33,801 bases of DNA, taken from a virus. The position numbers and the translations under genes were made by a program. The stretch lies in the IMG/VR virus record IMGVR_UViG_3300029130_000029, positions 1-33,801 of that record. The stretch is one strand, 5' to 3'. Shown here in pieces: positions 3,907 through 23,160 of this stretch (position 1 is the stretch's first letter; each line of letters opens with the position of its first letter). A model generated the notes under the pieces. It was not told the DNA's origin. It made no database searches and saw nothing but the letters and a program-made list of their open reading frames with translations.

Positions 3907-4992
3907 ATGAAAGAAAGGACAAATACGGCAAAGTGGCTTGAGAAGCAGAACCGCTGGCAGATCGCCGTCCAGAAAGATGGCGTAAGAAAAACATTTACAA
4001 GCAGTCGGCCGGGAAGGGAAGGGCAGAGGGAAGCAAACCGAAAAGCAGATGATTGGTTGGCATCAGGCATCTGCGGGACGAAGCTGCACCTATCGGAGCT
4101 GCACGAAAGCTATATGGAGCAGCTTAAAATTCGGACTTCGCAATCGAATTGGCGACCGCAGGAAAGCCGCTGGAAAACATGGATTGACCCAAGGATAGGC
4201 CACCTAAAGGCAGATGCACTTTGCGATGGGATTTTGCAAAAGGTTATCGACTATGCATACAATAACGGGAAATTGTCGAAGAAGTATCTGCAAAGCATCC
4301 GTGCTGACATGGTTTCTTTCTGCAAATATCTGCGGAAAATGAAAGTAACCGGCTTTGCCCCGGAAGACATAACAATTCCAAAGGGAGCCCCCGTTGGCGT
4401 TCGCAACATTTTGCAGCCGGAGGACATTGTAACGCTTTTCTCCGTTGATACGACGATCTACAAGGGTAAATTGGTAAAAGATCCATATATAAATGCTTAT
4501 CGCCTTGAGGTTTTGACCGGACTGCGGCCGGGGGAATTGCGTGGCATCATGCGAAACGATTTCAAACAGGGCAGATTGGAGGTAAGGCGGTCGATAAACG
4601 AGGATAACGAAATCACTACAGGCAAAAATGAAAATGCGATACGCAGCGTTTATTTGGGCGAAATCGCAGAGGCGATTGTAAAAGATCAAGCATCCAAGTC
4701 AAACGGCCTGTATCTATTCCAAATGCCGACAACGGAAACCTATCGGAAGTTTTTCCAAAGATATTGCAAAGCAAACGGAATTCCGAAAACGACACCATAC
4801 GAGCTGCGACACACTTTCGTTTCTCTTGCACAGTCCCTCCCGGAGGGATGGGTAAAGCAATTGGTCGGCCACTCAAAAAGCATGGACACATTCGGGGTTT
4901 ACGGCCACGCTGTATCGGGGATGGATCGGCAAATAACCAGCGCACTCGATGGCGTGTTTATATCAATTCTTGGGCGGCAAGAAAAAAAGTGA
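3907..4992 (+). CDS. int: Tyrosine site-specific integrase
   Basis: ATG follows AGGAGGAG. The C-terminal catalytic region contains LTGLRPGELRGI, YELRHTFVSLA and GHSKSMDTFGVYGH (the R...HxxR...Y signature). It is adjacent to the attP-like site. Confidence 0.95.
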   Translation: MKERTNTAKWLEKQNRWQIAVQKDGVRKTFTSSRPGREGQREANRKADDWLASGICGTKLHLSELHESYMEQLKIRTSQSNWRPQESRWKTWIDPRIGHLKADALCDGILQKVIDYAYNNGKLSKKYLQSIRADMVSFCKYLRKMKVTGFAPEDITIPKGAPVGVRNILQPEDIVTLFSVDTTIYKGKLVKDPYINAYRLEVLTGLRPGELRGIMRNDFKQGRLEVRRSINEDNEITTGKNENAIRSVYLGEIAEAIVKDQASKSNGLYLFQMPTTETYRKFFQRYCKANGIPKTTPYELRHTFVSLAQSLPEGWVKQLVGHSKSMDTFGVYGHAVSGMDRQITSALDGVFISILGRQEKK

Positions 4993-5025
4993 GTTATTTT
5001 GTGAGTTTTTTTGCAAAAGAAAAAA

Positions 5026-5058
5026 GCCAGTAACCCTCATGGTTACTGGCTTTCTCGT
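5026..5058. terminator. Bidirectional intrinsic terminator between integrase and the lysis/att region
   Basis: A 10-bp stem, GCCAGTAACC (5026-5035) with GGTTACTGGC (5041-5050), encloses a 5-nt loop. It is followed by TTTCTCGTT on the plus strand and preceded by an A-run, which becomes a T-run on the minus strand. Confidence 0.7.
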
Positions 5059-5090
5059 TGGTGCGGAAGATGGGACTTGAACCCACACGC
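5059..5090 (-). other. tRNA 3-prime fragment (T-arm, acceptor 3-prime strand, discriminator, CCA) = probable attP core
   Basis: The minus strand reads GCGTGTGGGTTCAAGTCCCATCTTCCGCACCA: T-stem GTGGG/CCCAT, T-loop TTCAAGT, acceptor CTTCCGC, then A and CCA. Sequence further 5-prime does not fold as the rest of a tRNA. Identity is undetermined (the ending resembles Leu). Confidence 0.7.
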
Positions 5091-5203
5091 AAAATTATGT
5101 TATTGCCGTAAAGTGTAGGAATCAAGCGGTTTTTCCGACTTTTATTCCGCTGAAAAAAGCATGAAAAACTCACTTTCGGAACAAAAGTGAGTTGCAAAGT
5201 GAG

Positions 5204-5947
5204 TTATTTTGCCACCGTATCGTACTGCTCAATAGCTGCCAAAATTCTCCCGCGCAGCGCCTGCGCACTGGCGTGTTCGGTTCTGTATTTCTCTTTGATG
5301 TCTTCCAGCTCGGCGACCAGCTTATCATAATCGCTCGGAACCTGCGTATCGTCATTGAGATACTGCCGCACCAACGCCAAAAACGCGCTCCAGTGCGGTC
5401 TGATATAGACAGGGCAGTCTTTCCTTGCGTACCAGTCATGGTGCTGGTAGACTGCGGTTTCATCCAAACCGTGCCGTTTTAGAATAGCAGCGCAAAGTCT
5501 TGCACCGTTATCTTCGGCAATCCGATTGTACTCGGCATCAGTGCCGTCCATGATGATCTCGATGGCGATGGTAGTGCTGTTGCCGGGGCCGTAGTTTCCA
5601 TCGGCAGCGTGCCAGCCGACCTCGCCCTCGTCAAGGTTCTGCCATGCTTCGTTCTCGTCCACATAGTAGTGGACACGAACGGATCCCATATTGCAGTTCG
5701 GGTAGGTCGCGCGGGTGTACTGCTCCGCCATTGTGGTTCCTTTCGGGATTTTGATCCTACCTGTATTATGGATCGTGACGCCTTTAATCGCAGAAAGCGG
5801 ACGATTGGCCTTATAGGTCGTTCCCTTTCGGTAGGTGTAACCACCTTCCTTAACATCACGGTTCCACACCGCAGAATCCGGGATTATCTTCTCACAGATT
5901 TTTACGCCGTTATCATAGCGTACATTATCGGGAGAGAGGAAAGCCAT
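5204..5947 (-). CDS. Endolysin, N-acetylmuramoyl-L-alanine amidase (Amidase_2/PGRP-type)
   Basis: Motifs VTIHNTG, HYYVDENEAWQNL, WHAADGNYGPGNSTTIAIEI and HHDWYARKDCP. It is the last gene of the late operon, directly after the holin. Confidence 0.9.
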   Translation of the reverse strand: MAFLSPDNVRYDNGVKICEKIIPDSAVWNRDVKEGGYTYRKGTTYKANRPLSAIKGVTIHNTGRIKIPKGTTMAEQYTRATYPNCNMGSVRVHYYVDENEAWQNLDEGEVGWHAADGNYGPGNSTTIAIEIIMDGTDAEYNRIAEDNGARLCAAILKRHGLDETAVYQHHDWYARKDCPVYIRPHWSAFLALVRQYLNDDTQVPSDYDKLVAELEDIKEKYRTEHASAQALRGRILAAIEQYDTVAK

Positions 5948-6270
5948 TAGGCTTCCCCCTTTCCTTCGGCATCCAAAATAGCCGCATCAGTGTGTTTGAC
6001 CATGCCGGTGGTGGCTGCGTCATATGTACCATTAGCAGCCAAAGCGACAATAACAGCGTTCAGCAGGCACAGCACCACGCCCTGTACCGTCAGAGCAGAG
6101 CCGTTAAAGGCTTCGGCTCCGATGAGGATGGCCACAGAGATGATGTAAGCAAGCAGCTGGGTGTTGATGTTCTTGAGGGGGGTCTGCTTGAGGAACTGGG
6201 TAATGATTGTGACCATCATTACAGCGCCTGCGTAAGTACCAAGGGAAGTCCAAGTTACAAATTCGTTCAT
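5947..6270 (-). CDS. Holin (multi-TM small protein)
   Basis: 107 aa with hydrophobic helices (YAGAVMMVTIITQFL, LLAYIISVAILIGAEAF, VVLCLLNAVIVALAA) and a charged C-terminus. Its stop overlaps the endolysin start. Confidence 0.65.
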   Translation of the reverse strand: MNEFVTWTSLGTYAGAVMMVTIITQFLKQTPLKNINTQLLAYIISVAILIGAEAFNGSALTVQGVVLCLLNAVIVALAANGTYDAATTGMVKHTDAAILDAEGKGEA

Positions 6271-6282
6271 TTTATGTCCTCC

Positions 6283-6675
6283 TTAAAGGAATTTGAGTTC
6301 CCCACGAATACAGCGGTCGTGGACGCTCTTAATGTTGCGGATCGCTGCATCCGCTTTGGAATTGATATAGACATCTTCGTGCTCCACACAGTACTCTGTG
6401 TAGTTGTCGATATCCTCCAGCACATTGTTGAAGGATTCTTCGCTGTGGTTCACCCCACGGCGCAGCTCGTCCGAAAAGCGCAGGATGCGGATGCGGCACA
6501 TATCTGTCCGGTAGCGTTCGTCAGAATCAATATGCTGTTGCAGCTTATTGTCCAAGGCTGACATACCGGAGATAATCTGATCCTGCTTGTCCTGCTTGCG
6601 GTCAATACGATGCAGCAGCCAGCTAATGACGGTAGCCAATGCGCCGGAGCCGAGGAGGGCCAGTGCAATTTCCAT
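6283..6675 (-). CDS. N-terminally membrane-anchored protein, unknown function (lysis-proximal)
   Basis: TM helix MEIALALLGSGALATVISWLL followed by a helical soluble domain. No recognised family. Confidence 0.55.
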   Translation of the reverse strand: MEIALALLGSGALATVISWLLHRIDRKQDKQDQIISGMSALDNKLQQHIDSDERYRTDMCRIRILRFSDELRRGVNHSEESFNNVLEDIDNYTEYCVEHEDVYINSKADAAIRNIKSVHDRCIRGELKFL

Positions 6676-6678
6676 GGG

Positions 6679-7113
6679 TTATGCCTCCTCAAAATACTGG
6701 CCTACAAGCTCGTGCGGGAGGTACTGCAGCACGATGGTGCCGGTCTCATTCAAACGCTTGCAGAGGTAGGTTTTACTGTCCTCCGGGTCGAGGTAGTACT
6801 TGCCGTACTCGTATTCCATACCCCTCGATGCCTGGATGGGGTCATCAATCGTTCCGGGAGAACTGGTGTTGACTACCACCCACAGAGCAGGAACAGCCGG
6901 GGGTTCCCAGTCTGCCTGCGATGTGTGGGCCTGCAAGCACTTGTACACCTTGCCATCGTGTCGTCTGCGGTCACCCACCGCATACTTGGTGCCAGTTTCC
7001 CATGGTAGGAACAGCATGGGGTTCTTTGCTGCATCAGCGTCAGCCATGGCACCAGTCACGCTGTCAATGCTCGTCCGAATCTCCTGCGCCTGCTCTAAGA
7101 TGTCATTCCGCAT
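6679..7113 (-). CDS. Protein with CBM5/12-like (chitin-binding type 3) carbohydrate-binding motif
   Basis: WETGTKYAVGDRRRHDGKVYKCLQAHTSQADWEPPAVPALW matches the pattern W..G..Y..GD.V...G..Y.C...H.S...W.P.....LW of CBM5/12 domains. Confidence 0.6.
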   Translation of the reverse strand: MRNDILEQAQEIRTSIDSVTGAMADADAAKNPMLFLPWETGTKYAVGDRRRHDGKVYKCLQAHTSQADWEPPAVPALWVVVNTSSPGTIDDPIQASRGMEYEYGKYYLDPEDSKTYLCKRLNETGTIVLQYLPHELVGQYFEEA

Positions 7114-7234
7114 TGGCTGCTTCCTCCTTTTCTTCGGTTTCTACGCCGAGGGTTTGAAGAGCTGCTTTCAGATGTTCCAGCTCTGCTTCCTGCTTTGCTT
7201 TTACTTCTTTGGCTTTTTCTGTGTAATAGCCCAT
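7103..7234 (-). CDS. Small charged coiled-coil peptide (43 aa), below the ORF-track cutoff
   Basis: ATG 7234 overlaps the TAA of the upstream fibre gene (TAATG). Its stop TGA 7105-7103 overlaps the ATG of the next gene. Sequence MGYYTEKAKEVKAKQEAELEHLKAALQTLGVETEEKEEAANAE. Confidence 0.4.
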   Translation of the reverse strand: MGYYTEKAKEVKAKQEAELEHLKAALQTLGVETEEKEEAANAE

Positions 7235-8523
7235 TAGTTCACCCCCATAATGTTAAGAGCATTAAGTGTATCAAGGATATAACTTTCGCCAGAAAGTGTT
7301 TTCCACTGATTTGTAGTTGTATCGTAAATATAAGCATTTGTGAGTTGAGCGATGTTGTTTGAATCTCCGATGTAAGCATTTCGTAAGTAGGCTTCAAATT
7401 CGGATTTTTGACCTTTTACGACTGTGAATGGATTGTCAAAACCAAAGTCTGCTTGTAGAAATAAATGATTTTGTTGCAAAACAGTCGATTGTGTAAATGT
7501 TTCTACTGAAGAAACTCCAGAACCACCAAGAAGATAAAATTTATCACCAACAAATCCACAGCAAGCTGATACTCTACTTGCGTGCAATTCAGACTCAAGC
7601 ACGTCAACGGCCAAGTTATCTAAATTTACACGAATTATCTTTTTTTGATACTGAGTAGAATCTATATTTCCAAAGATATATGCATAGCTACCGATTCTAC
7701 AGCACCTATTTGCTTGGTTCACCATATAAGGTAGTACATTGTTATTCTGAGTATATTCTTGTGTATCGACATCAAATGTCTGTATAGACTTCCGTGGGTC
7801 AAATGAGACTCTTGTTGTGCCTCCAAATACATAAACTTTGCTTCCTACTGCAACACAAGCTGCATTATAGGTTCCTTGAGCTTGTACTGGCATATTCCCA
7901 TGATAAGTAAATTTTTCTGTTGTTACATCGAAAACTGATACAGTAGCAGAGTTTATACTTCCAACATATGAACCAACAAGAAATATTTTATTGCCACTAA
8001 CACAGCCACTTGAAAAATAGTATACTTGCGTACCGGGAAAGGGATAAGAAACATTTCTTAGTGTAGTTTTTTCTCCTGTTTCCAAATCAAACTTATCTAC
8101 ATACTCGGAATCTGCTCCAACATTATGATTAAAAGTATATATGTATTTGCCAACAGTAAATGCGAGTACATAATATTGGTAAACCAGGTCTGAATAAAAA
8201 GTCGTTTTTTCTCCCGTTGTTACATCATATCTATATATATCATTTTGCTGGCTACCTGTATATGGACAAACAGAATAAATATAATTACCGTATGAACACA
8301 TTTGCGGGTAGTCATTTCTAAGCTGAGAAAAACCAACTGTCCAATTCTTTGTCTCCGTGTATTCATTTCCATAATTCAAAACAGGACTGCATTTCACGAA
8401 GTCTGGCTTACTTACCAACGGAACCCATAGTTTGCTTGTATCTACGGGAGGGGTGGAACCAAAGTCAATGTTCAAATCAGCTCCACCACCACCCAATGTA
8501 ATAGGATTTCCTAAAATACTCAT
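7234..8523 (-). CDS. Kelch-like beta-propeller tail fibre / receptor-binding protein, paralogue 2 (intact)
   Basis: About six blades carry the pattern G-x-x-[IVF]-Y-[IVL]-[FLV]-G-G/N followed by [IV]xx[FY]D[VL]xTxxxT. Examples are GSKVYVFGGT...IQTFDVDTQEYT, GDKFYLLGGSG and IYRYDVTTGEKTT. The N-terminal 45 aa or so and the C-terminal 35 aa or so are shared with paralogue 1. The likely start is ATG 8523; the track start 8529 is GTG. Confidence 0.75.
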   Translation of the reverse strand: MSILGNPITLGGGGADLNIDFGSTPPVDTSKLWVPLVSKPDFVKCSPVLNYGNEYTETKNWTVGFSQLRNDYPQMCSYGNYIYSVCPYTGSQQNDIYRYDVTTGEKTTFYSDLVYQYYVLAFTVGKYIYTFNHNVGADSEYVDKFDLETGEKTTLRNVSYPFPGTQVYYFSSGCVSGNKIFLVGSYVGSINSATVSVFDVTTEKFTYHGNMPVQAQGTYNAACVAVGSKVYVFGGTTRVSFDPRKSIQTFDVDTQEYTQNNNVLPYMVNQANRCCRIGSYAYIFGNIDSTQYQKKIIRVNLDNLAVDVLESELHASRVSACCGFVGDKFYLLGGSGVSSVETFTQSTVLQQNHLFLQADFGFDNPFTVVKGQKSEFEAYLRNAYIGDSNNIAQLTNAYIYDTTTNQWKTLSGESYILDTLNALNIMGVN

Positions 8524-8547
8524 ATTCACCCTTTCCGGGGTGATGTA

Positions 8548-9836
8548 TTAGGTCACCCCTAAGATATTCAATGCTGTCTGCATATCGTCTACATAGCTTT
8601 CGCCAGACAGCGACTTCCATTTATTTGTTGCTGTATCAAACAAATATGCTGTTTGTTCTTGAGCCGTTCCATTAGTATCTCCAAGATATACAGCAAGCGG
8701 ACAAGCGTACAAAGAAGTGTCTTTCCCTTTTACGGCTTCCCATACATCATCTGTATAGTCTGTGTTCACCAGCAAGGTTCCTGCTTCAAGTTCAAAGTTG
8801 AACTTCGTATAGACTACGCCAGCGTTGCCAAACCATGATGTATGATTTCTAAAAGAAGAAGCACCAATTACAGCAGTCGTAGGCGGTTGCCCAAGAGTTG
8901 CTGCTTTTGTCTGTGTGTATGTTTCAGGGTGCCACTGTAACAACGAAGAAAAGTCACCCTGCTTAATGTAATAAGAATTGTTGCTAATTAGCCAATGACG
9001 ATACGGTATGGAATTTCCCAGCCATCCAGAAGCAGATGTTGCATTTGTCCACTCTTTTGTGTTCAAATCAAAGATATAAATATTTGCAGTGTCGTTTGTG
9101 GTTGCAAAAACAACGGTGTCTTTTGTGTAATACACTGGATGACCCTCGACTGGACATTGGTAAAAAGTTATCCCATTTGAATCAGTGTCAAAAATTCTTA
9201 CGAAACGCTGTGAACGAACATTATATCCAGATTCGTTACCTGAAGGACTACCGCCAATAATAACAATCTTATCGCCCCACAAAAAAGCATCACAATATTC
9301 CCAGCTTTCGATGTTGTAGTTTACGGGTGCTTTTTGATAGACAACTGTTGCAGTGTTAGTAGATAAATCTACTTTCATTATTTGTTCATGTCGGCTGTAT
9401 TTCTGCGTAGTGTATGACACAGCACCACTAATAATATAAATGCAATTATTGTAATAAACACAAGGAGCAGCACCACCTGGATTTGCTGGAAGTGTTATTT
9501 GCGAAGTAATATTTTCTTGTGACCATGTGCTTTTACTTATTCGATTGACTACTTTTGTCACATATATGTATTCAGATGCAATGCCACCAAACGCATAGAT
9601 ATAATCTTCTGTTTCGCAAAGTGCCATACCATTTACCATGTTCGCTGATGTTACAGGGTGGTGTTCCTGCGTTATACTGCCAACATCGGTACGAAAGTCA
9701 ACCTTTACTGCATCCGGTTTTTTCTCCAAAGGCACCCATAGTTTAGTTGTGTCTGTCGGAGGGGTAGAACCGTAATCAATGTTGAGTTTTACCCCCCCCC
9801 GTTGGTAATAATTGGATTCCCATAGATGATGCTCAT
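8548..9836 (-). CDS. Kelch-like beta-propeller tail fibre / receptor-binding protein, paralogue 1, reading frame interrupted at a G9 homopolymer
   Basis: Track ORF 8548..9735 starts at a GTG that has no RBS. Upstream, ATG 9836 overlaps the stop of 9833..10705 (ATGA) and encodes MSIIYGNPIITNGGG before TAA (9791-9789). One frame over, VKLNIDYGSTPPTDTTKLWVPL runs into the ORF. The joined sequence aligns with the paralogue-2 N-terminus. Kelch-like blades are present (DYIYAFGG, GDKIVIIGGSPSG). Confidence 0.7.
9792..9800. repeat. C9 (G9 on the coding strand) homopolymer at the frame junction of the fibre gene
   Basis: Plus strand reads tttt-a-ccccccccc-gttgg. G10 or G7 would restore a single reading frame. 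Confidence 0.9.
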
Positions 9837-10705
9837 GCGGTTACCTCCGTTATCGTTACCTGTACCGCCATATCCGCATTGGGCTTTTCGCCCATTGCTT
9901 TGGCGGTAAGGGTACCATTGTTGTTCTCAATCCAAAGGGCAGATGTGCCGCTGTCTATGATAACGCCAAGAGCGGTTGCGTCCATCTGGATATCCACCTT
10001 GCTGTTGGCCGTAGTTCCAAGCCCGCTGATGGTTTGGCTGTACGGACTTTCGGAGCCGAGCCAAGATGCCGCAGGAAGCGAAAGCTGCTTAATAACAACC
10101 GCACGGTTTATCTTGTACTCCATCTTTCCGATGGCCTGCGTTACCGTATCTGTTGTGGTTACATTCTGCCGGGAGGTTGCCTGCTTGTAGCCGGGGATTT
10201 TGATTTGGCTGCCGGTGTAATCGCCGGTTTGCGGTGTCACCGCTCCGGTGCGGCCGTTAAAGCTCGCAACAGTACCAGGGCTGATGGTGTGCGCTACATA
10301 CTGCAAATCGGAGATCATTGTGGGCTGGGCTGTGTAAGTGGCTATCGGCAGCTGGTACACAGTACCGCTTGCATTGATATCCTCCTGCACCAGCGCCGGA
10401 AGCGGGTCTTGCGCCTGTGTCACAAAAGAAATCGGTGCTTCGGTGTTTGCCATGTCAATTTGGATAAGCAATCGACCGGGGACAGAGCCGCTGGTCGGAA
10501 GCGTCGCATTGATCGTTTGGGCTTCCACAACAAAGTTTCGGCCGAGGATTATACCACGGCCATCGGAAACATTTATGATGTTACCACCCTGTGTAGTTAC
10601 TTCAACGCCAGTAAAGATGCCGCTGTCGTTGATAATGTGGTTGTACAGATACGCATCATCCGTTGGAGTTACGATAGATGCGTTATACTGGAGCAGCGTT
10701 ATCAT
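9833..10705 (-). CDS. Tail fibre / baseplate-distal protein
   Basis: The motif FNGRTGAVTPQTGDYTGSQI recurs in phage tail-fibre proteins. It lies between the Tal-like gene and the receptor-binding genes, and both neighbours are joined by ATGA overlaps. Confidence 0.6.
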   Translation of the reverse strand: MITLLQYNASIVTPTDDAYLYNHIINDSGIFTGVEVTTQGGNIINVSDGRGIILGRNFVVEAQTINATLPTSGSVPGRLLIQIDMANTEAPISFVTQAQDPLPALVQEDINASGTVYQLPIATYTAQPTMISDLQYVAHTISPGTVASFNGRTGAVTPQTGDYTGSQIKIPGYKQATSRQNVTTTDTVTQAIGKMEYKINRAVVIKQLSLPAASWLGSESPYSQTISGLGTTANSKVDIQMDATALGVIIDSGTSALWIENNNGTLTAKAMGEKPNADMAVQVTITEVTA

Positions 10706-11757
10706 GCGTTTGCCCTCCTTTCAAGGATCAAAATTTTGGTAAGATCGGCACGGACAACGCCGAAGGTCATTTTTGTAACATCCTGCGACCTTGCATAGCC
10801 GGTAAGGATAGATTTGTAACTACTGTCGCCATCAATGACCAAAACCTCTGTGCCGATGGCCATTGAGGTATCAAGTACGCCACAGTCGTTTCGGGCAGTC
10901 AGCTCGATCATGTTGTCATACTTTTGCGGGCTTAACGCTTCGTAAGCCTTTTTGTATGCAGCAGATTCAAAATTGATATCCGTTTCCAAAAACTGCGCCG
11001 CAAAAAACACAGGTGTAATTCTGTCCGTGTTGTTTGTGTCGACATTGCCGTTAGGATGTAGATAGTAGGTTATGCGCTGCGTCTCATCGGCCTTGTTGTA
11101 GATGGTTACCTTGTTCAGCTGGCCTGTGCTGTCGCCGATGATGATGTTTTTGTCAACGATAGCCTGTAGGTTTGTTTCTATGACAGCAGTCTCGCTGACC
11201 TTGCCCACCTTAACAGAGATTGTCTTTTTCTGCGGGTCAAAGCTCATGTTGACAGCTACGCCATAAGCCGTCAGCGATTTCGTGATGATTTCGTAAAAGC
11301 TGTGGATGTTGTCCTTTAGATTGAGCGCCCCGGTCGTTTCGGAGGTCGTTTCCACCGTCATACCGGATATGTTTTGCAAAGCATCTCCAGAAGAAACAAA
11401 GTTATCTCGGATGATTGAAGCAATAAAAGGCTCGATCTTTGCAGAGGTCGTGCGATCGAAATATACCTCGGTGTCAAAAAGCGACATAAGAGGCTGCGCC
11501 GAAATCGTTACGCCCGTTTTATCTGTTTCCACATCGTCAACGATTCCCTGATAAGCTACATTCCCGTTTTGGTCTGTAACGCTTATAAAGTCGCCCTTTT
11601 TTGCATCCAGCTTTACAGCCCGGAGAGTAGTTTTTTCTACGGTCAGGTAGTCAAACTGTATCTCCGGGCTTTCAATCGGAGCAAAACTTCGGAATGTGAA
11701 ATCCCTTGCGAATACTTCGCACTTAAACAGAGTATGCAAGTTTCTCCACCTCCACAT
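10702..11757 (-). CDS. Tal-like tail tip / baseplate hub protein (siphovirus Gp37-like, short form)
   Basis: Assigned from its position directly after Dit and its size. The start is uncertain: ATG 11757 lacks an RBS, while TTG 11739 follows GGAGGTGGAG. Confidence 0.55.
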   Translation of the reverse strand: MWRWRNLHTLFKCEVFARDFTFRSFAPIESPEIQFDYLTVEKTTLRAVKLDAKKGDFISVTDQNGNVAYQGIVDDVETDKTGVTISAQPLMSLFDTEVYFDRTTSAKIEPFIASIIRDNFVSSGDALQNISGMTVETTSETTGALNLKDNIHSFYEIITKSLTAYGVAVNMSFDPQKKTISVKVGKVSETAVIETNLQAIVDKNIIIGDSTGQLNKVTIYNKADETQRITYYLHPNGNVDTNNTDRITPVFFAAQFLETDINFESAAYKKAYEALSPQKYDNMIELTARNDCGVLDTSMAIGTEVLVIDGDSSYKSILTGYARSQDVTKMTFGVVRADLTKILILERRANA

Positions 11758-12544
11758 ATGCTACGATATCCGATGTGCCGTCGTGCGAAAATGTCAAAGT
11801 GCTTTCTCCCGGCGGAGCATAGATAAATCTTCCGGTCGAAAAGTCGCTGGACTGGTACAGGTTTTGGATGTATGTCCCGTCGAGCGCATACTCTGCGATC
11901 TCCATTGTTGCAGGGTCAGCATCAACAACGAGTTTGTGTCCGTCAGGGATTGTTGCGGTTACTTTTCCGACCGCTACACGGGTACCGGCCTTGATAAGCG
12001 CCCAAGCAGGATTGACGACCGGGCCGAAGATTTGCAGTTTGCACGGTGATGCCAAATCCCCGTTTCTTATTTTTGCAGTTCCTGTTGCTGTTTCTGCGTA
12101 GTAATAAGGATAAGTGTAACTGTACCTTTTAATTCCTTGGTCTGGCGCTTGACTTTGTGTTACCTTAACAGCTTCGTGCCAAGTCCCGAAGCAGAGGAAT
12201 GTAATCGGTACTGCCAAATAGCCGGATTTCAGTTCCGACTTATCCGCAGACTGCACTTCACACTTGATTTTGTACCATGTGTCCAGCGGGGAATACATCA
12301 GGTAAAGCGGGCCTTTTGTCACGAACGAAATAAACGCCTGATACCGGGAATAGTCGAAGAATATCATTTCGCCTGTCACGGCATACTGGTTAAGGAATTC
12401 ATCCGATACCAGCCATGCGCTTCCGGCTTGGATGGTGGAGTAGGTTTTGCCAAAGCCTAATCCACCTGGCGCATTGAAGTACGCCGTTTTGTCCATCAAA
12501 TCCCATTCGGCGCCGACACCGTTCTTGAGCTTAAATTTTCTCAT
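11723..12544 (-). CDS. Distal tail protein (Dit)
   Basis: Immediately follows the tape measure gene, with its ATG overlapping the TMP stop (TGATG). The size is typical, and the beta-rich sequence resembles siphovirus tail-component family proteins. Confidence 0.7.
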   Translation of the reverse strand: MRKFKLKNGVGAEWDLMDKTAYFNAPGGLGFGKTYSTIQAGSAWLVSDEFLNQYAVTGEMIFFDYSRYQAFISFVTKGPLYLMYSPLDTWYKIKCEVQSADKSELKSGYLAVPITFLCFGTWHEAVKVTQSQAPDQGIKRYSYTYPYYYAETATGTAKIRNGDLASPCKLQIFGPVVNPAWALIKAGTRVAVGKVTATIPDGHKLVVDADPATMEIAEYALDGTYIQNLYQSSDFSTGRFIYAPPGESTLTFSHDGTSDIVAYVEVEKLAYSV

Positions 12545-14883
12545 CAGTAAGCCCTCCCAAGCGCACGGTTGACCGCCTGTACCAAGTTCCTTGCGGCAGC
12601 TTCACCGGCTGCGTTATCGTAGCCGTTAAATGTGTTGTTCATTTCGATGGTGATGCCGCCACGGTCGTTTCCGTTCAGTGGCATAACATGGGCACGGCCA
12701 CCGGCCATGGTAAGCAGCTCCGGCCCGGCTTCGCCGACGATGGCGCTGCCGGAGGACAAAACTCCGCCCTTGGCAAGATAAGCAATTTTTCCGATGGTCG
12801 GAATATTAAATCCGAGGGACTTACCGCCCAAAACAGGAACCCAATCCGGAACATCAAAGTGAATGCTGTTAAGGCCGTTTATCATCCAGTTAATGGCGTC
12901 AATAACCATGTTGATAAGGCCGATGATTCCATTAAGAGGAGCCTTTGCAATCGCCACAAGGGCTGTAAAGATGCCCTTAAAGATTTCCTGAACACCTGTC
13001 CATGCTCTTTCCCAGTCCCCCGTGAATACGCCACGGATGAAATCGATAATACCGTCAAAAACGGCCTTTATGGAATCCCAAATAGATTTTACTGTTGCGA
13101 AGAAGAAATTTAAGATTTCCCCCAATATTCCGAACGATTCCGACCAATCCGTCGTAAATACGCCCTGCAAGAAATCATCCACACGCTGGAGAATGGCTTG
13201 TATCTCGTCTCCACTTGTTGCAATCCAAGCAACAAGTCCTACAATGGCCGCTATGAGCAGCACGATAGGATTTGCAATTATGAAATTTATGGCCGTTATC
13301 AGCGCCGGGATAACCGTTCCAGTTATAAAACTGATGGCTCCGGCAATTCCCGAAATAATGCCTGCAATCGGGGAAATCGCCGCAATAAGACCGCCGACAA
13401 TAAGGATTGTCTTTTTGACCCCATCGTCGAGGTTTGAAAACCAATCGATTGCATTTTGAAGCCCTGCGACGATTTTATTGATAATCGGCAGCAGGATATC
13501 ACCGATAGAGATTGCCAAGTTATTGAGCCCGTTTCGGAGTATTTTCATCTGGCTTTCGGTCGTTGCGTATCTTTTGCTTGCCTCGTTGGAGAGGGCAATA
13601 TTTTCGTCCCACGCAGTATTTGCGGTTGTAACAGCATCGTCCAATACATCGGACGCAAGGGCTAACGCACGAAGCATATTGGACTGGCGAATCCCGGAGA
13701 GCCCCAATTTATCCAATACAGAGATTGTGTCCTCTCCATTTTCGTTCATCTTCCCAAGCCCGCCGATGAAAGCACTGATTGCGTCCATCGGTTCATTGCC
13801 CCACATATCTGCGAATTCAGAAGCAGATGCACCAGCGATCTTTGCAAATGTTTCAAGATCATCACCGCCAGCAGACACAGCCTTGCTTATTGCGGTCATT
13901 GTTTGGGTCATTGCCGTACCGCCTGCCTCTGCGTTGATGCCAACAGAGGACATTGCGGTGGACAATGCAAGGATATCCTGTTCGGACAACCCGGCAACTG
14001 TACCAGCAGACGCAAGGCGGGTAGCCATCTCAACAATATCGCGCTCTGTTGTGGCGAAGTTGTTGCCAAGGTCAACGATGGTACTGCCGAGTTTGGAGTA
14101 TTCATCAGCGGTCGTTCCGGTAATGTTGGCAAATTTGGCAAGTGCAGAGGCAGCTTCATCAGCGGAAAGGTTTGTTGCTTCGCCCAAGTCGATCATAACG
14201 CGGGTAAAGTCAAGTACATCATCGGTGGCAATACCCAACTGTCCAGCAGCTTCCGCAACCGCCGCAATCTCCGTAGTGGACGCAGGAATTTCTTCTGCCA
14301 TGTCCAATATGCCCTGCCGGAGTGCCGCAAGCTGCTCTGAAGTGCCGTCTACTGTTTTTTCAACGCCAGCAAAGGCGCTTTCGAATTCTACAGCCGCTTT
14401 TGTGGCTGCCACTCCTGCTCCTGCAAAGGCCAAAGATGCCGGTGCAAACTTCTTTGCAATGTTCCCGGACTTTTCGGCGATCTCGCCGGTAACTGCGGAA
14501 ACCTGTGCAAGCGCCGCACGGCTCTTGGATGCTTCTGCCTGTAGGTCTTTCAGTTTCAGCTCGGCGCTGGTCAGTTCCTGGACTAACTCACGGTATTGTT
14601 TTTGGTTGACCTCCGTTCCTGCGGCCATTTCTTGATCCGCTTGCTTTTTGGCGTTCCGGAGGCTTTCAACCTTGTTTTCTGTATTTTTGATTTGATCCCC
14701 GAGCAATTGTTCCTTTTGTTTGAGCAGGTCAATATTGGTCGGGTCGAGTTTCAGCAGGCGATTGACCTTATTAAGCTCCGATTGTGTTCCACCGATTTCT
14801 CTGTTCAGCGAGCCGAGCGCTTTTGACAATCCCGTTGTATTGCCGCCGATTTCAACAACGATGCCTTTAACCTTTTCAGCCAA
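12544..14883 (-). CDS. Tail tape measure protein
   Basis: The longest gene. It has a helical N-terminus, an Ala/Gly-rich core and hydrophobic segments (ILIVGGLIAAISPIAGIISGIAGAISFITG). The likely TTG start at 14883 lies 8 nt after AGGAGG and overlaps the stop of the chaperone frameshift product. The track start 14910 is GTG. Confidence 0.9.
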   Translation of the reverse strand: MAEKVKGIVVEIGGNTTGLSKALGSLNREIGGTQSELNKVNRLLKLDPTNIDLLKQKEQLLGDQIKNTENKVESLRNAKKQADQEMAAGTEVNQKQYRELVQELTSAELKLKDLQAEASKSRAALAQVSAVTGEIAEKSGNIAKKFAPASLAFAGAGVAATKAAVEFESAFAGVEKTVDGTSEQLAALRQGILDMAEEIPASTTEIAAVAEAAGQLGIATDDVLDFTRVMIDLGEATNLSADEAASALAKFANITGTTADEYSKLGSTIVDLGNNFATTERDIVEMATRLASAGTVAGLSEQDILALSTAMSSVGINAEAGGTAMTQTMTAISKAVSAGGDDLETFAKIAGASASEFADMWGNEPMDAISAFIGGLGKMNENGEDTISVLDKLGLSGIRQSNMLRALALASDVLDDAVTTANTAWDENIALSNEASKRYATTESQMKILRNGLNNLAISIGDILLPIINKIVAGLQNAIDWFSNLDDGVKKTILIVGGLIAAISPIAGIISGIAGAISFITGTVIPALITAINFIIANPIVLLIAAIVGLVAWIATSGDEIQAILQRVDDFLQGVFTTDWSESFGILGEILNFFFATVKSIWDSIKAVFDGIIDFIRGVFTGDWERAWTGVQEIFKGIFTALVAIAKAPLNGIIGLINMVIDAINWMINGLNSIHFDVPDWVPVLGGKSLGFNIPTIGKIAYLAKGGVLSSGSAIVGEAGPELLTMAGGRAHVMPLNGNDRGGITIEMNNTFNGYDNAAGEAAARNLVQAVNRALGRAY

Positions 14884-15094
14884 TCTTACCACCTCCTGCG
14901 AAGAAATCACGCAAGCCGCCGGGTCTGCCCTTTATGGCATACTGTTCTGCATCATTGGCCTTTTCGATCATTAAATCGTAGACCATTCCGCAGGTCATGT
15001 CCTCCAGCGCTTCATCGGATAACCCGAGTTCAGCGCAGCGGAGCATAAAGGTTGACCCGGTGGGCTCACGCACGGTTTGTTTTATTTTTTTTTT
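14876..15094 (-). CDS. gpT-like extension of the tail assembly chaperone, reached by a -1 frameshift (fusion product 15423 to 14876)
   Basis: The -1 frame is open through the A10 run and continues ...KIKQTVREPTGSTFMLRCAELGLSDEALEDMTCGMVYDLMIEKANDAEQY... to TGA 14878-14876. The track shows it only as an RBS-less GTG ORF, 14876..15073. Confidence 0.7.
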   Translation of the reverse strand, partial: KKKIKQTVREPTGSTFMLRCAELGLSDEALEDMTCGMVYDLMIEKANDAEQYAIKGRPGGLRDFFAGGGKIG

Positions 15095-15423
15095 GGAACA
15101 GCGGTAGTCTTGTTGTTAAGGCTCCAAAGCTCCAAAATGGCAGGAAGCACTTTATAGATGGAGAACATCTCAAACTGCTCCAGCCACTCGTCAACATTGT
15201 CCGGGATGGATCCGTCATATTGCCGAGCCATGATAAAAGCGACATCCTCAAAGATTTCAAGATCGCTTACGGAAAAAGATCCGTCCTCGGATGTCGCTGC
15301 CGTTTGTAGCTTTTGAAGGTCACGCACAATGTCCCGACCCACTTTGTGGCGGTAAATTCGTGGGGTAAGCGCATTAGCGCATAACCCTACGCTTTTTCCG
15401 TCGATCTCGATTACTTTGTTCAT
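15082..15423 (-). CDS. Tail assembly chaperone (gpG-like)
   Basis: Lies between the major tail protein and the tape measure. It ends ...TTAVPKKK-TAA within a slippery A-run. Confidence 0.75.
   Translation of the reverse strand: MNKVIEIDGKSVGLCANALTPRIYRHKVGRDIVRDLQKLQTAATSEDGSFSVSDLEIFEDVAFIMARQYDGSIPDNVDEWLEQFEMFSIYKVLPAILELWSLNNKTTAVPKKK
15085..15094 (-). promoter_or_regulatory. Slippery A10 run (T10 on the plus strand) for -1 programmed ribosomal frameshift
   Basis: The minus strand reads CCA AAA AAA AAA TAA, which contains A_AAA_AAA heptamers immediately before the 0-frame stop. Confidence 0.7.
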
Positions 15424-22807: not shown

Positions 22808-22905
22808 GGCTTCCCCTTTCTCAAAAATATACCGTAGAGTTGGAAAAAGTTCCCCCCGCCGGTCCCCATAGACAGGCGGAAGGCGCAACGGATAGGGGGG
22901 GGGTA

Positions 22906-23160
22906 TCAGTAACGGCCCCTTGCTGCTGTTGCTTTTTCCGGGTGCTGCTTGTTATGGCAGCCCTCACACAGGCTTACTAAATTTTTATCTTCGTAAGCCA
23001 GCTCCGGGTACTCATCTGCGTGTTTGATATGATGCACCGTTGTAGCCTGTACCGCCTTTCCGTACCTCTTGCAGTGCTGGCACATATATCCGTCACGCCT
23101 TAATATCTGTTGGCGCTTCCTCCGCCACCTGGGAGAATTATAATCAAATACAATGTTCAT
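22906..23160 (-). CDS. HNH endonuclease (packaging-associated)
   Basis: CQHCKRYGK...HHIKH...LVSLCEGCHNKQH. It lies directly upstream of TerS, as in HNH-assisted cos packaging modules. Confidence 0.9.
   Translation of the reverse strand: MNIVFDYNSPRWRRKRQQILRRDGYMCQHCKRYGKAVQATTVHHIKHADEYPELAYEDKNLVSLCEGCHNKQHPEKATAARGRY

Follow-up and report, generated by a model that had tools for sequence, protein, structure and literature searches.

Tandem Kelch propeller genes and a length-variable poly-G run in the tail region of a temperate gut phage

Little is known of which hosts gut prophages can infect, and predictions usually start from intact tail-fibre open reading frames (ORFs). The IMG/VR virus record IMGVR_UViG_3300029130_000029 (33,801 nt, analysed over its whole length and termed the window here) comes from a temperate phage of siphovirus type whose host is a Gram-positive (Bacillota) gut bacterium, and carries a cassette of two adjacent Kelch-repeat genes on the minus strand (7234-9836), the first of which is interrupted near its start by a run of nine G's. 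The question raised by this locus is why two such genes stand side by side, and whether the interruption of one of them is a defect or a switch. The answer favoured here, with moderate confidence, is a modular receptor-binding cassette in which one head (A) is constant and the other (B) is phase-variable and off in the window. The wider proposal, that a widespread family of human-gut temperate phages uses a replication-slippage switch to add a second Kelch head stochastically and exchanges heads via conserved gene ends, is put forward tentatively. Evidence was drawn from a comparative set of about 130 related gut-phage loci (loci and proteins are given as L and P numbers).

Two Kelch genes and the exchange of their cores

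Gene A occupies the second position (7234..8523, minus strand) and is an intact ORF of 429 codons. In its 429-aa protein, a six-bladed Kelch propeller (~50-345) follows an N-terminal adaptor of ~47 aa and precedes a C-terminal module (~80 aa) that is conserved. Gene B occupies the first position (8548..9836, minus strand) and has an A-like architecture. The original prediction had placed two adjacent minus-strand genes at these positions, and both are found there; 8548..9836 is not a single ORF, however, and the earlier reading ran across a frameshift at G9 and TAA. The poly-G run (9792..9800; G9 on the gene strand, C9 on the plus strand) lies 36 nt past the gene B ATG. This ATG, at 9836, shares bases with the upstream gene's stop codon (ATGA), and GGAGG precedes it by 9 nt; it opens an ORF of 15 codons (9789..9836, minus strand) encoding MSIIYGNPIITNGGG, with the stop codon TAA (9789-9791) abutting G9. 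The remainder of the gene (VKLNIDYGSTPP...) is in the -1 frame; 10 or 7 G's would join both parts, and with 10 G's the predicted product has 429 aa. The third frame, that of G8 and G11, reaches TGA five codons past the last complete Gly codon (GGT AAA ACT CAA CAT TGA). Owing to the frameshift at G9, an ORF listing shows gene B only as 8548..9735 (395 aa). The Gly run of gene A is encoded as GGT GGT GGT GGA, without a homopolymer.

A Kelch propeller fold had been proposed for both proteins from their repeat motifs, and hidden Markov model searches and structure prediction of monomers confirmed it for both. All of the motifs on which the proposal rested are present (GSKVYVFGGT, IQTFDVDTQEYT, GDKFYLLGGSG, DYIYAFGG, GDKIVIIGGSPSG and both C-terminal strings). 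Searches of Pfam matched A to PF24681 (90.4 bits, cut-off 50), Kelch_6 (53.6), Kelch_1 (44.8) and Kelch_2 (35.1), all above the cut-off, and B to Kelch_6 (39.0 bits, cut-off 25.3), Kelch_1 (30.6, cut-off 20.1) and Kelch_2 (29.6, cut-off 21.3). AlphaFold2 monomer models were built from alignments of 51 (A) and 49 (B) family members; the predicted local distance difference test (pLDDT) score was 84-97 in the propeller core of A and averaged 82 for B. The top Foldseek matches of the A model in the PDB were six-bladed Kelch domains (including LZTR1, KLHDC3 and KLHL), and those of the B model included LZTR1, KLHDC10 and Keap1, with E values of 1e-14 (A) and 2e-12 (B), template modelling scores of 0.63-0.74 normalised on the target, and KLHL3/12/20 among the matches. 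Both proteins are thus modelled as six-bladed Kelch propellers with four-stranded blades. No BTB, BACK or F-box domain was found in A or B by Pfam, and the eukaryotic BTB-Kelch and F-box-Kelch ubiquitin-ligase adaptors have the fold in common with A and B, but not the family.

The two proteins are 27% identical overall (E 1e-32), and most of the likeness lies in the first ~40 and the final ~45 residues, which bears out the proposal of shared termini. Across the alignments of 51 and 49 members, the N-terminal (~47 aa) and C-terminal (~80 aa) modules hold many invariant columns, and within the family the cores are only 27-40% identical while the termini are invariant. The family yields 370 matches at 90% clustering, nearly all of 420-450 aa, unnamed and located on contigs of 20-46 kb. 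An exhaustive phmmer search with the N-terminal 47 residues gave 95 clusters at 50% identity, nearly all of 420-455 aa. Searches of PHROG and NCBIfam returned no family covering A or B. A search of IMG/VR with repaired B returned no B-type relative, the B-type relatives being supplied by the protein database alone.

The cassette also stands out in composition. In 200-nt windows, GC content is 0.54-0.58 at 6600-7199, 0.32-0.44 at 7200-9599 and 0.53-0.57 by 9900-10399, a sharp drop limited to genes A and B. The G+C counts made earlier by hand were exact (20/60 at 7261-7320 and 38/60 at 10021-10080), and the abrupt change that they implied at the cassette is visible in both the GC profile and the GC content of third codon positions (GC3). 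The latter is 0.25 in A and 0.32 in B, compared with 0.52-0.68 in eleven other genes of the window; hence the deviation sits in codon choice and not in amino-acid content alone. Among 109 family genes the mean GC content is 39.3% (standard deviation 1.9), against 47-52% in the flanks, so that the cassette is compositionally foreign, as the original prediction held. In L025 (IMGVR_UViG_3300045988_115180, 105.6 kb, 37% GC) the composition of the Kelch pair (5995-8635) matches its surroundings. This element may be the compositional home of the cassette or an element of a different kind. The ORFs upstream of its pair include, judged by eye, a ClpP-like protease and a metallo-beta-lactamase-fold protein, and its Gly run is written in mixed codons.

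The propeller cores differ where the phages around them hardly do. Comparison by blastn with L008, L004 and L015 gave 95-97% identity from the tail genes down to 9707, where homology ends; it resumes at 8657/8656 (L008, L012) or at 8622 (L004, L015, L022, L036). In phages otherwise 95-97% identical, the difference is confined to the gene B core. The conserved stretches of gene B are its first ~130 nt and last 75-110 nt. The 5' end (9707..9836, minus strand, ~43 codons) encodes the adaptor and is the upstream recombination handle, the core (8658..9706, minus strand) is unrelated at the DNA level and exchangeable, and the 3' end (8548..8657, minus strand), which encodes the C-terminal motif ...WKSLSGESYV.DMQ.ALNILGV, is the downstream handle. 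At the other edge of the cassette, a human-faecal phage contig is 95% identical across the lysis module up to 7254-7257, ~20 nt inside the 3' end of gene A.

Core types are also found in either position. A-type cores occupy the first position in L014, L015, L017 and L022, and a B-type core is joined to a second-position N-terminus in P0123. In L014 a single gene consists of a first-position 5' end fused to an A core, the product expected if paralogous 5' ends recombined unequally. The second slot of L023 and L027 is occupied by a non-Kelch Gly_rich_2 protein that starts with the same 14 residues as the Kelch adaptor and is followed by an 80-aa ORF. These comparisons show that phages exchange propeller cores through recombination within the conserved ends, 5' and 3', of the genes, and the family GC data fit cores circulating from a lower-GC phage pool. 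Purifying selection acts on both core types (dN/dS, the ratio of nonsynonymous to synonymous substitution rates, 0.07-0.22), the values against orthologues being 0.10-0.22 for A and 0.07-0.16 for B. The earlier idea of a duplicated module is too simple, given cores that are ~27% identical and shuffled between phages. Its companion, two alternative heads on a common adaptor, agrees with the core swaps and with the occurrence of cores in either position; the two genes are not equivalent, however, as B is out of frame in the window. The conserved ends of the cassette form a natural scaffold for swaps of receptor-binding heads.

Length variation of the poly-G run

Two samples of the run were assembled. 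First, 35 loci were collected by homology to protein A, blind to the poly-G run; in these, a G-rich run stands at the matching place in every first-position 5' end of this phage type, with the exception of L025, which has a different genomic context and mixed Gly codons. Eleven of these loci are in frame (L025 counted) and 19 are out of frame (the window counted), and on the gene strand of nearly every one there is no other G run of at least 7. Second, a pattern scan of viral and metagenome collections gave 79 further contigs with the run. Conservative de-duplication left 70 non-redundant poly-G sites, with lengths of G7 (4 sites), G8 (11), G9 (30), G10 (14), G11 (9) and G13 (2). Lengths of 7, 10 and 13 are in frame (20/70) and lengths of 8, 9 and 11 are not (50/70). 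The second-position gene and more distant lineages carry the Gly run in mixed codons, without a homopolymer.

Length differs between otherwise identical sequences. Five groups with identical flanks (400+400 nt, 100% identity required) have different run lengths: 8/9, 8/9, 10/11, 8/9 (G9 in the window and G8 in L044) and 7/8/9. As in known contingency loci, a homopolymer of at least 7 thus lies near the 5' end inside an ORF, early stops follow in both other frames, and repeat length differs among otherwise identical genomes. Runs interrupted by a substitution occur in both states, GGT+G7 being in frame (L014, L037) and T+G7 out of frame from the normal ATG (8 independent samples). Across related loci totalling 1.15 Mb, G/C runs of at least 8 were otherwise confined to contig-end junk in L040 and one run in the window at 22895-22903. 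The latter is G9 on the plus strand and C9 on the gene strand, is intergenic, 2 nt past the stop codon of an 84-aa HNH endonuclease gene (22906..23160, minus strand), and lies upstream of a small-terminase-like ORF, in what may be the cos/packaging region.

The gene calls of the protein database show the same diversity. The identical B allele appears there as products of 429 (one contig), 425, 424, 395 and 363 aa. From the normal ATG, the 429-aa form (P0178) reads in frame; a G9 run would give the truncated ORF of the 395-aa call, and the 424- and 425-aa calls begin at a second ATG and match G8 (or T+G7) and G11. This second ATG (9821-9823, within ATC TAT GGG), 13 nt downstream, keeps G8, G11 and T+G7 open as MGIQLLPTGG... 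in L041-L050 and in protein P0121, and the 424-aa product was called from it on 13 contigs. It was considered as a real start and rejected, as it lies ~21 nt from GGAGG, is absent in MSVIYGNP lineages and would drop invariant N-terminal residues. If gene B is switchable, gene callers would mis-annotate it systematically; its database products range from 355 to 430 aa.

The mechanism proposed for the phase-variable cassette begins with a first-position gene in which the Gly-run codons have been recoded to a G homopolymer. Replication slippage would then alter the length of the run (G7-G13), turning head B on at 7, 10 and 13 and off at 8, 9 and 11, and the second-position gene, with its mixed Gly codons, would always be on. 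The G9 of the window puts head B in the off state and would leave head A as the sole product. Some of the genomes in a population would make head B as well, a form of bet-hedging on host range, and one phage genome would give rise to mixed particles with one or two heads. The switching rate and the adaptive value, like the docking partner discussed below, are inferred.

Several observations weigh against such a switch, or against the receptor-binding role assumed for it. The in-frame share of 20/70 (29%) does not differ from the one third expected if frame were not under selection (p = 0.45). G9, the modal length, is itself out of frame, so these lengths give no sign that the on state is ever favoured. 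Mutational bias likewise centres Campylobacter poly-G tracts near G9, and a neutral bell shape would be no surprise in prophages whose tail function is not under selection. For the exact B allele of the window, one of ~30 contigs is in frame from the normal ATG, and the T+G7 variant of the 8 samples is out of frame; the rarity of in-frame B could mean that B is silenced in this lineage. Run lengths are throughout the consensus of short-read assemblies. Furthermore, the L025 pair is not preceded by recognisable tail genes, the monomer models give no view of how the termini assemble, those of A having low confidence, and the case for virion location and receptor binding of either Kelch protein is an indirect one.

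The alternative that survives best is programmed recoding, in which ribosomes or RNA polymerase slip -1 on G9 (AAC GGG GGG GGG TAA) and make B at a fixed low ratio to A. G9 is the commonest length (30/70), G GGG GGG is formally a slippery sequence of the X XXY YYZ type, and a homopolymer followed by TAA with an open -1 frame matches the tail-chaperone G/GT site of the same phage (CCA AAA AAA AAA TAA, 15085-15094). However, a designed -1 site should be conserved, and the mixed lengths therefore count against recoding: G9 is present at only 43% of sites, 29% are in frame already, and 29% (G8 and G11, 20 sites) would need +1. In addition, folding of the 112 nt after the run was no more stable than that of shuffled sequence (minimum free energy z = -0.75), and the zero-frame product is a 15-residue peptide without a plausible role. 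Recoding is accordingly held to be unlikely. A sequencing or assembly artefact, with the run truly in frame everywhere (e.g., G10) and A and B ordinary intact paralogues, is still less probable: errors are common in long G runs, lengths form a bell-shaped distribution around 9, and three contigs (L002, L005 and L038) break off exactly where the run lies, at position 1 of each locus, which would fit mixed lengths breaking the assembly graph as well as poor read quality there. The artefact would, however, require errors in 50/70 independent consensus sequences, which stem from several assemblers and projects, and miscalling does not yield substitution-interrupted variants fixed in both states. 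The run at 22895-22903, being intergenic, is no test of miscalling inside a gene.

Tail-region context and a probable receptor-binding role

The cassette lies in the late operon, downstream of the tape measure, Dit and tail-hub genes and upstream of the lysis genes. In minus-strand order, the tape measure gene (12544..14910) is followed by Dit (11723..12544; PF16774 in relatives), a tail protein matching phrog_7064 (10702..11757), a 290-aa tail protein (9833..10705), genes B and A, a 43-aa ORF (7103..7234), a 144-aa CBM5/12 protein (6679..7113), a 130-aa protein, a holin and an amidase. The 290-aa protein, directly upstream of gene B, has a receptor-binding protein (RBP)-like N-terminal domain, an NGRTGAV fibre repeat and a C-terminal domain of ~100 residues. 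By phmmer its N-domain matches PDB chain 30yz_W, a 'receptor-binding protein' (E 4e-6), and also FtbO. Its C-terminal domain also ends a 164-aa protein and a ~725-aa collagen-repeat protein in other phages, where these proteins sit immediately upstream of Kelch gene 1. The rule that this domain directly precedes the first Kelch gene is not universal, since L026-L028 (~4360-5960) have four small ORFs (110, 89, 194 and 132 aa) between the 290-aa homologue and the first Kelch gene; two of these were searched against Pfam and gave no match.

A tail-tip, receptor-binding role is the most economical reading of the gene order, the RBP-like protein upstream and the Kelch structural annotations in other phages, and is deduced from position and architecture. 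The late-operon position and the combination of a conserved attachment module with an exchangeable head are those of RBPs and peripheral baseplate proteins. Under this proposal the Kelch propeller would most likely be the receptor-binding head, probably binding glycans. The conserved ends of A and B would dock, most likely, to the C-terminal domain of the 290-aa protein and would double as homology arms through which cores are swapped, duplicated or deleted between phages, the cores being drawn from a lower-GC phage pool, as the low GC and GC3 indicate.

It is improbable that the Kelch genes are instead AT-rich 'moron' cargo, or tail-associated enzymes or chaperones (e.g., mutarotase-like), with B decaying. 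Foreign composition and a position at the end of the late operon are typical of such cargo, some family members have weak matches to NanM/mutarotase models, B is mostly out of frame in this lineage, and the L025 pair is outside a recognisable tail module. Against this, the B start is coupled to the stop codon of the upstream tail gene, and consensus scans gave no excess of promoters or terminators over shuffled sequence and none at the cassette edges, although such scans are weak evidence. Neither N-terminus resembles a signal peptide, as judged by eye. The adaptor is common to the Gly_rich_2 fibre-type protein in the equivalent slot, the cassette travels with a C-terminal domain of tail-fibre proteins, and phiERICV and PhiPA3 have Kelch proteins that carry a structural annotation. 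The reading of B as a pseudogene is weakened by dN/dS of 0.07-0.16 for B-type cores and by ORFs that are intact in all copies seen.

Further small genes lie near the Kelch cassette. The 43-aa ORF overlaps the gene A stop codon (TAATG) and contains AALQTLGVE, which resembles the Kelch C-terminal ALNILGV; a gene for 42-44 aa is called at its position in nine of the ten loci L041-L050, L050 ending before that place. The 80-aa ORFs of L023 (8173-8415) and L027 end in ...ADMQEALEILGVT, the Kelch C-terminal motif. Together with the 43-aa ORF, they mean that the C-terminal motif also occurs as a separate small protein. The CBM5/12 protein (E 1e-16; phrog_27545), between the Kelch genes and the holin, is kept in nearly all related loci and could be a further cell-wall-binding tail or lysis accessory. 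Upstream of the tape measure, the tail assembly chaperone G/GT-like site, a conventional feature, is a minus-strand A10 (15085-15094) with the gene G ORF at 15082..15423; its -1 frame is open for ~65 codons to a stop at 14878-14880, ~30 nt past the listed tape-measure start (14910).

The large terminase is closest to those of Geobacillus and Bacillus phages (65%) and of Ruminococcus gnavus phages (50%). The closest genome match is a contig titled Helicobacter pylori, followed by metagenome-assembled genomes of Absicoccus, Angelakisella and Ruminococcaceae at 28-38% identity. The former (L037, NZ_JAHXLB010000019.1) is a 23.6-kb contig in the assembly of H. pylori strain SHZY19, and its A-type gene is 91% identical and carries GGT+G7 in frame. 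The GC content of the phage is ~50% and that of H. pylori about 39%; L037 is thus probably a contaminant contig rather than an H. pylori prophage.

Comparison with known systems

The closest parallel to the run is in the Campylobacter Fletchervirus phages, in which a G homopolymer in a host-recognition gene reportedly toggles the frame and produces mixed phage populations. The likeness is a length-variable G run inside a phage gene tied to host recognition. The Fletchervirus phages differ in being lytic myoviruses of a Gram-negative host with poly-G switches of its own, whereas the window phage is temperate, siphovirus-type and associated with gut Bacillota; here, the run also lies in the Gly linker of a Kelch protein and would control the first of two tandem heads, the second being hard-wired on. 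These hypermutable poly-G tracts (Sorensen et al., 2021) are cited in PMC12823448 and PMC10877375. A 2025 preprint by Gomez, Barrick and Waters (PMC12633550) describes contingency loci in further phages, T2/T4 among them. There too, simple-sequence repeats lead to reversible frameshifts and bet-hedging, but the genes are agt and rIIA of lytic coliphages, in the context of defence evasion, and that work describes no tail-tip cassette or constitutive/variable pair. If the switch proposed here is real, phage contingency loci would extend from Campylobacter and T-even phages to temperate human-gut phages, and host range in Gram-positive gut phages would for the first time be under the control of a contingency locus.

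The gene order resembles that of the TP901-1/Tuc2009-type baseplates (BppU, BppA, BppL), in which Dit and Tal are followed by an adaptor-like protein and one or two peripheral proteins. In Tuc2009, two different peripheral proteins are carried on one adaptor, and the N-terminus of the peripheral proteins is conserved for docking while the head is variable. The conserved docking N-terminus with a variable head is a further likeness to TP901-1, Tuc2009 and the lactococcal p2 RBP. However, the heads of those phages are C-terminal beta-sandwiches, whereas here they are Kelch propellers between conserved flanks. The role of BppU in baseplates has been summarised (PMC12917162). No sequence match to BppU or BppL was found, and only the 290-aa protein matches a solved RBP N-domain.

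The original prediction had also stated that Kelch propellers are not a standard described class of siphovirus RBPs. No paper describing Kelch RBPs of siphophages was found in the literature, and no family was found either, so that this part stands; beta-propeller RBPs and structural Kelch proteins are known, however. Five-bladed beta-propeller 'platform' RBPs have been described in phi11 (Gp45), 80alpha and Brochothrix phage NF5 (gp18; PMC4901313, PMC7048315, PMC12917162). They share with A and B a beta-propeller as the receptor-binding domain, if that role is correct, in a baseplate protein of a Gram-positive siphophage. These RBPs are stem-platform-tower trimers of roughly 600 aa. They are five-bladed and non-Kelch, whereas A and B are predicted to be six-bladed Kelch proteins of ~430 aa with other terminal modules. 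Kelch proteins with virion or structural annotations are found in jumbo phages (PhiPA3 gp080, Noxifer, PS119XW, EL) and in Paenibacillus phage phiERICV (ERICV_05142), where a 598-aa Kelch 'phage structural protein' directly follows a gpI-like baseplate gene, in the tail-fibre slot. These differ from A and B in that they are 26-28% identical over part of the propeller and are without the terminal modules, the tandem cassette and the poly-G run. If the receptor-binding role holds, Kelch propellers would join the phage receptor-binding folds, and the class would be both large, with 95 or more clusters at 50% identity, and uncharacterised.

Other phages draw alternative receptor specificities from one genome by a stochastic genetic switch. 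The invertible segments of Mu (Gin) and P1 (Cin) and the diversity-generating retroelement of Bordetella phage BPP-1 are cited as host-range determinants in PMC12823448. Those systems work by site-specific inversion or mutagenic retrohoming, whereas slippage would here add or remove one of two heads. The cassette of the window thus differs from the known systems in its fold, in host and lifestyle, in the origin of the switch in a Gly linker, and in the pairing of a variable with a constitutive head.

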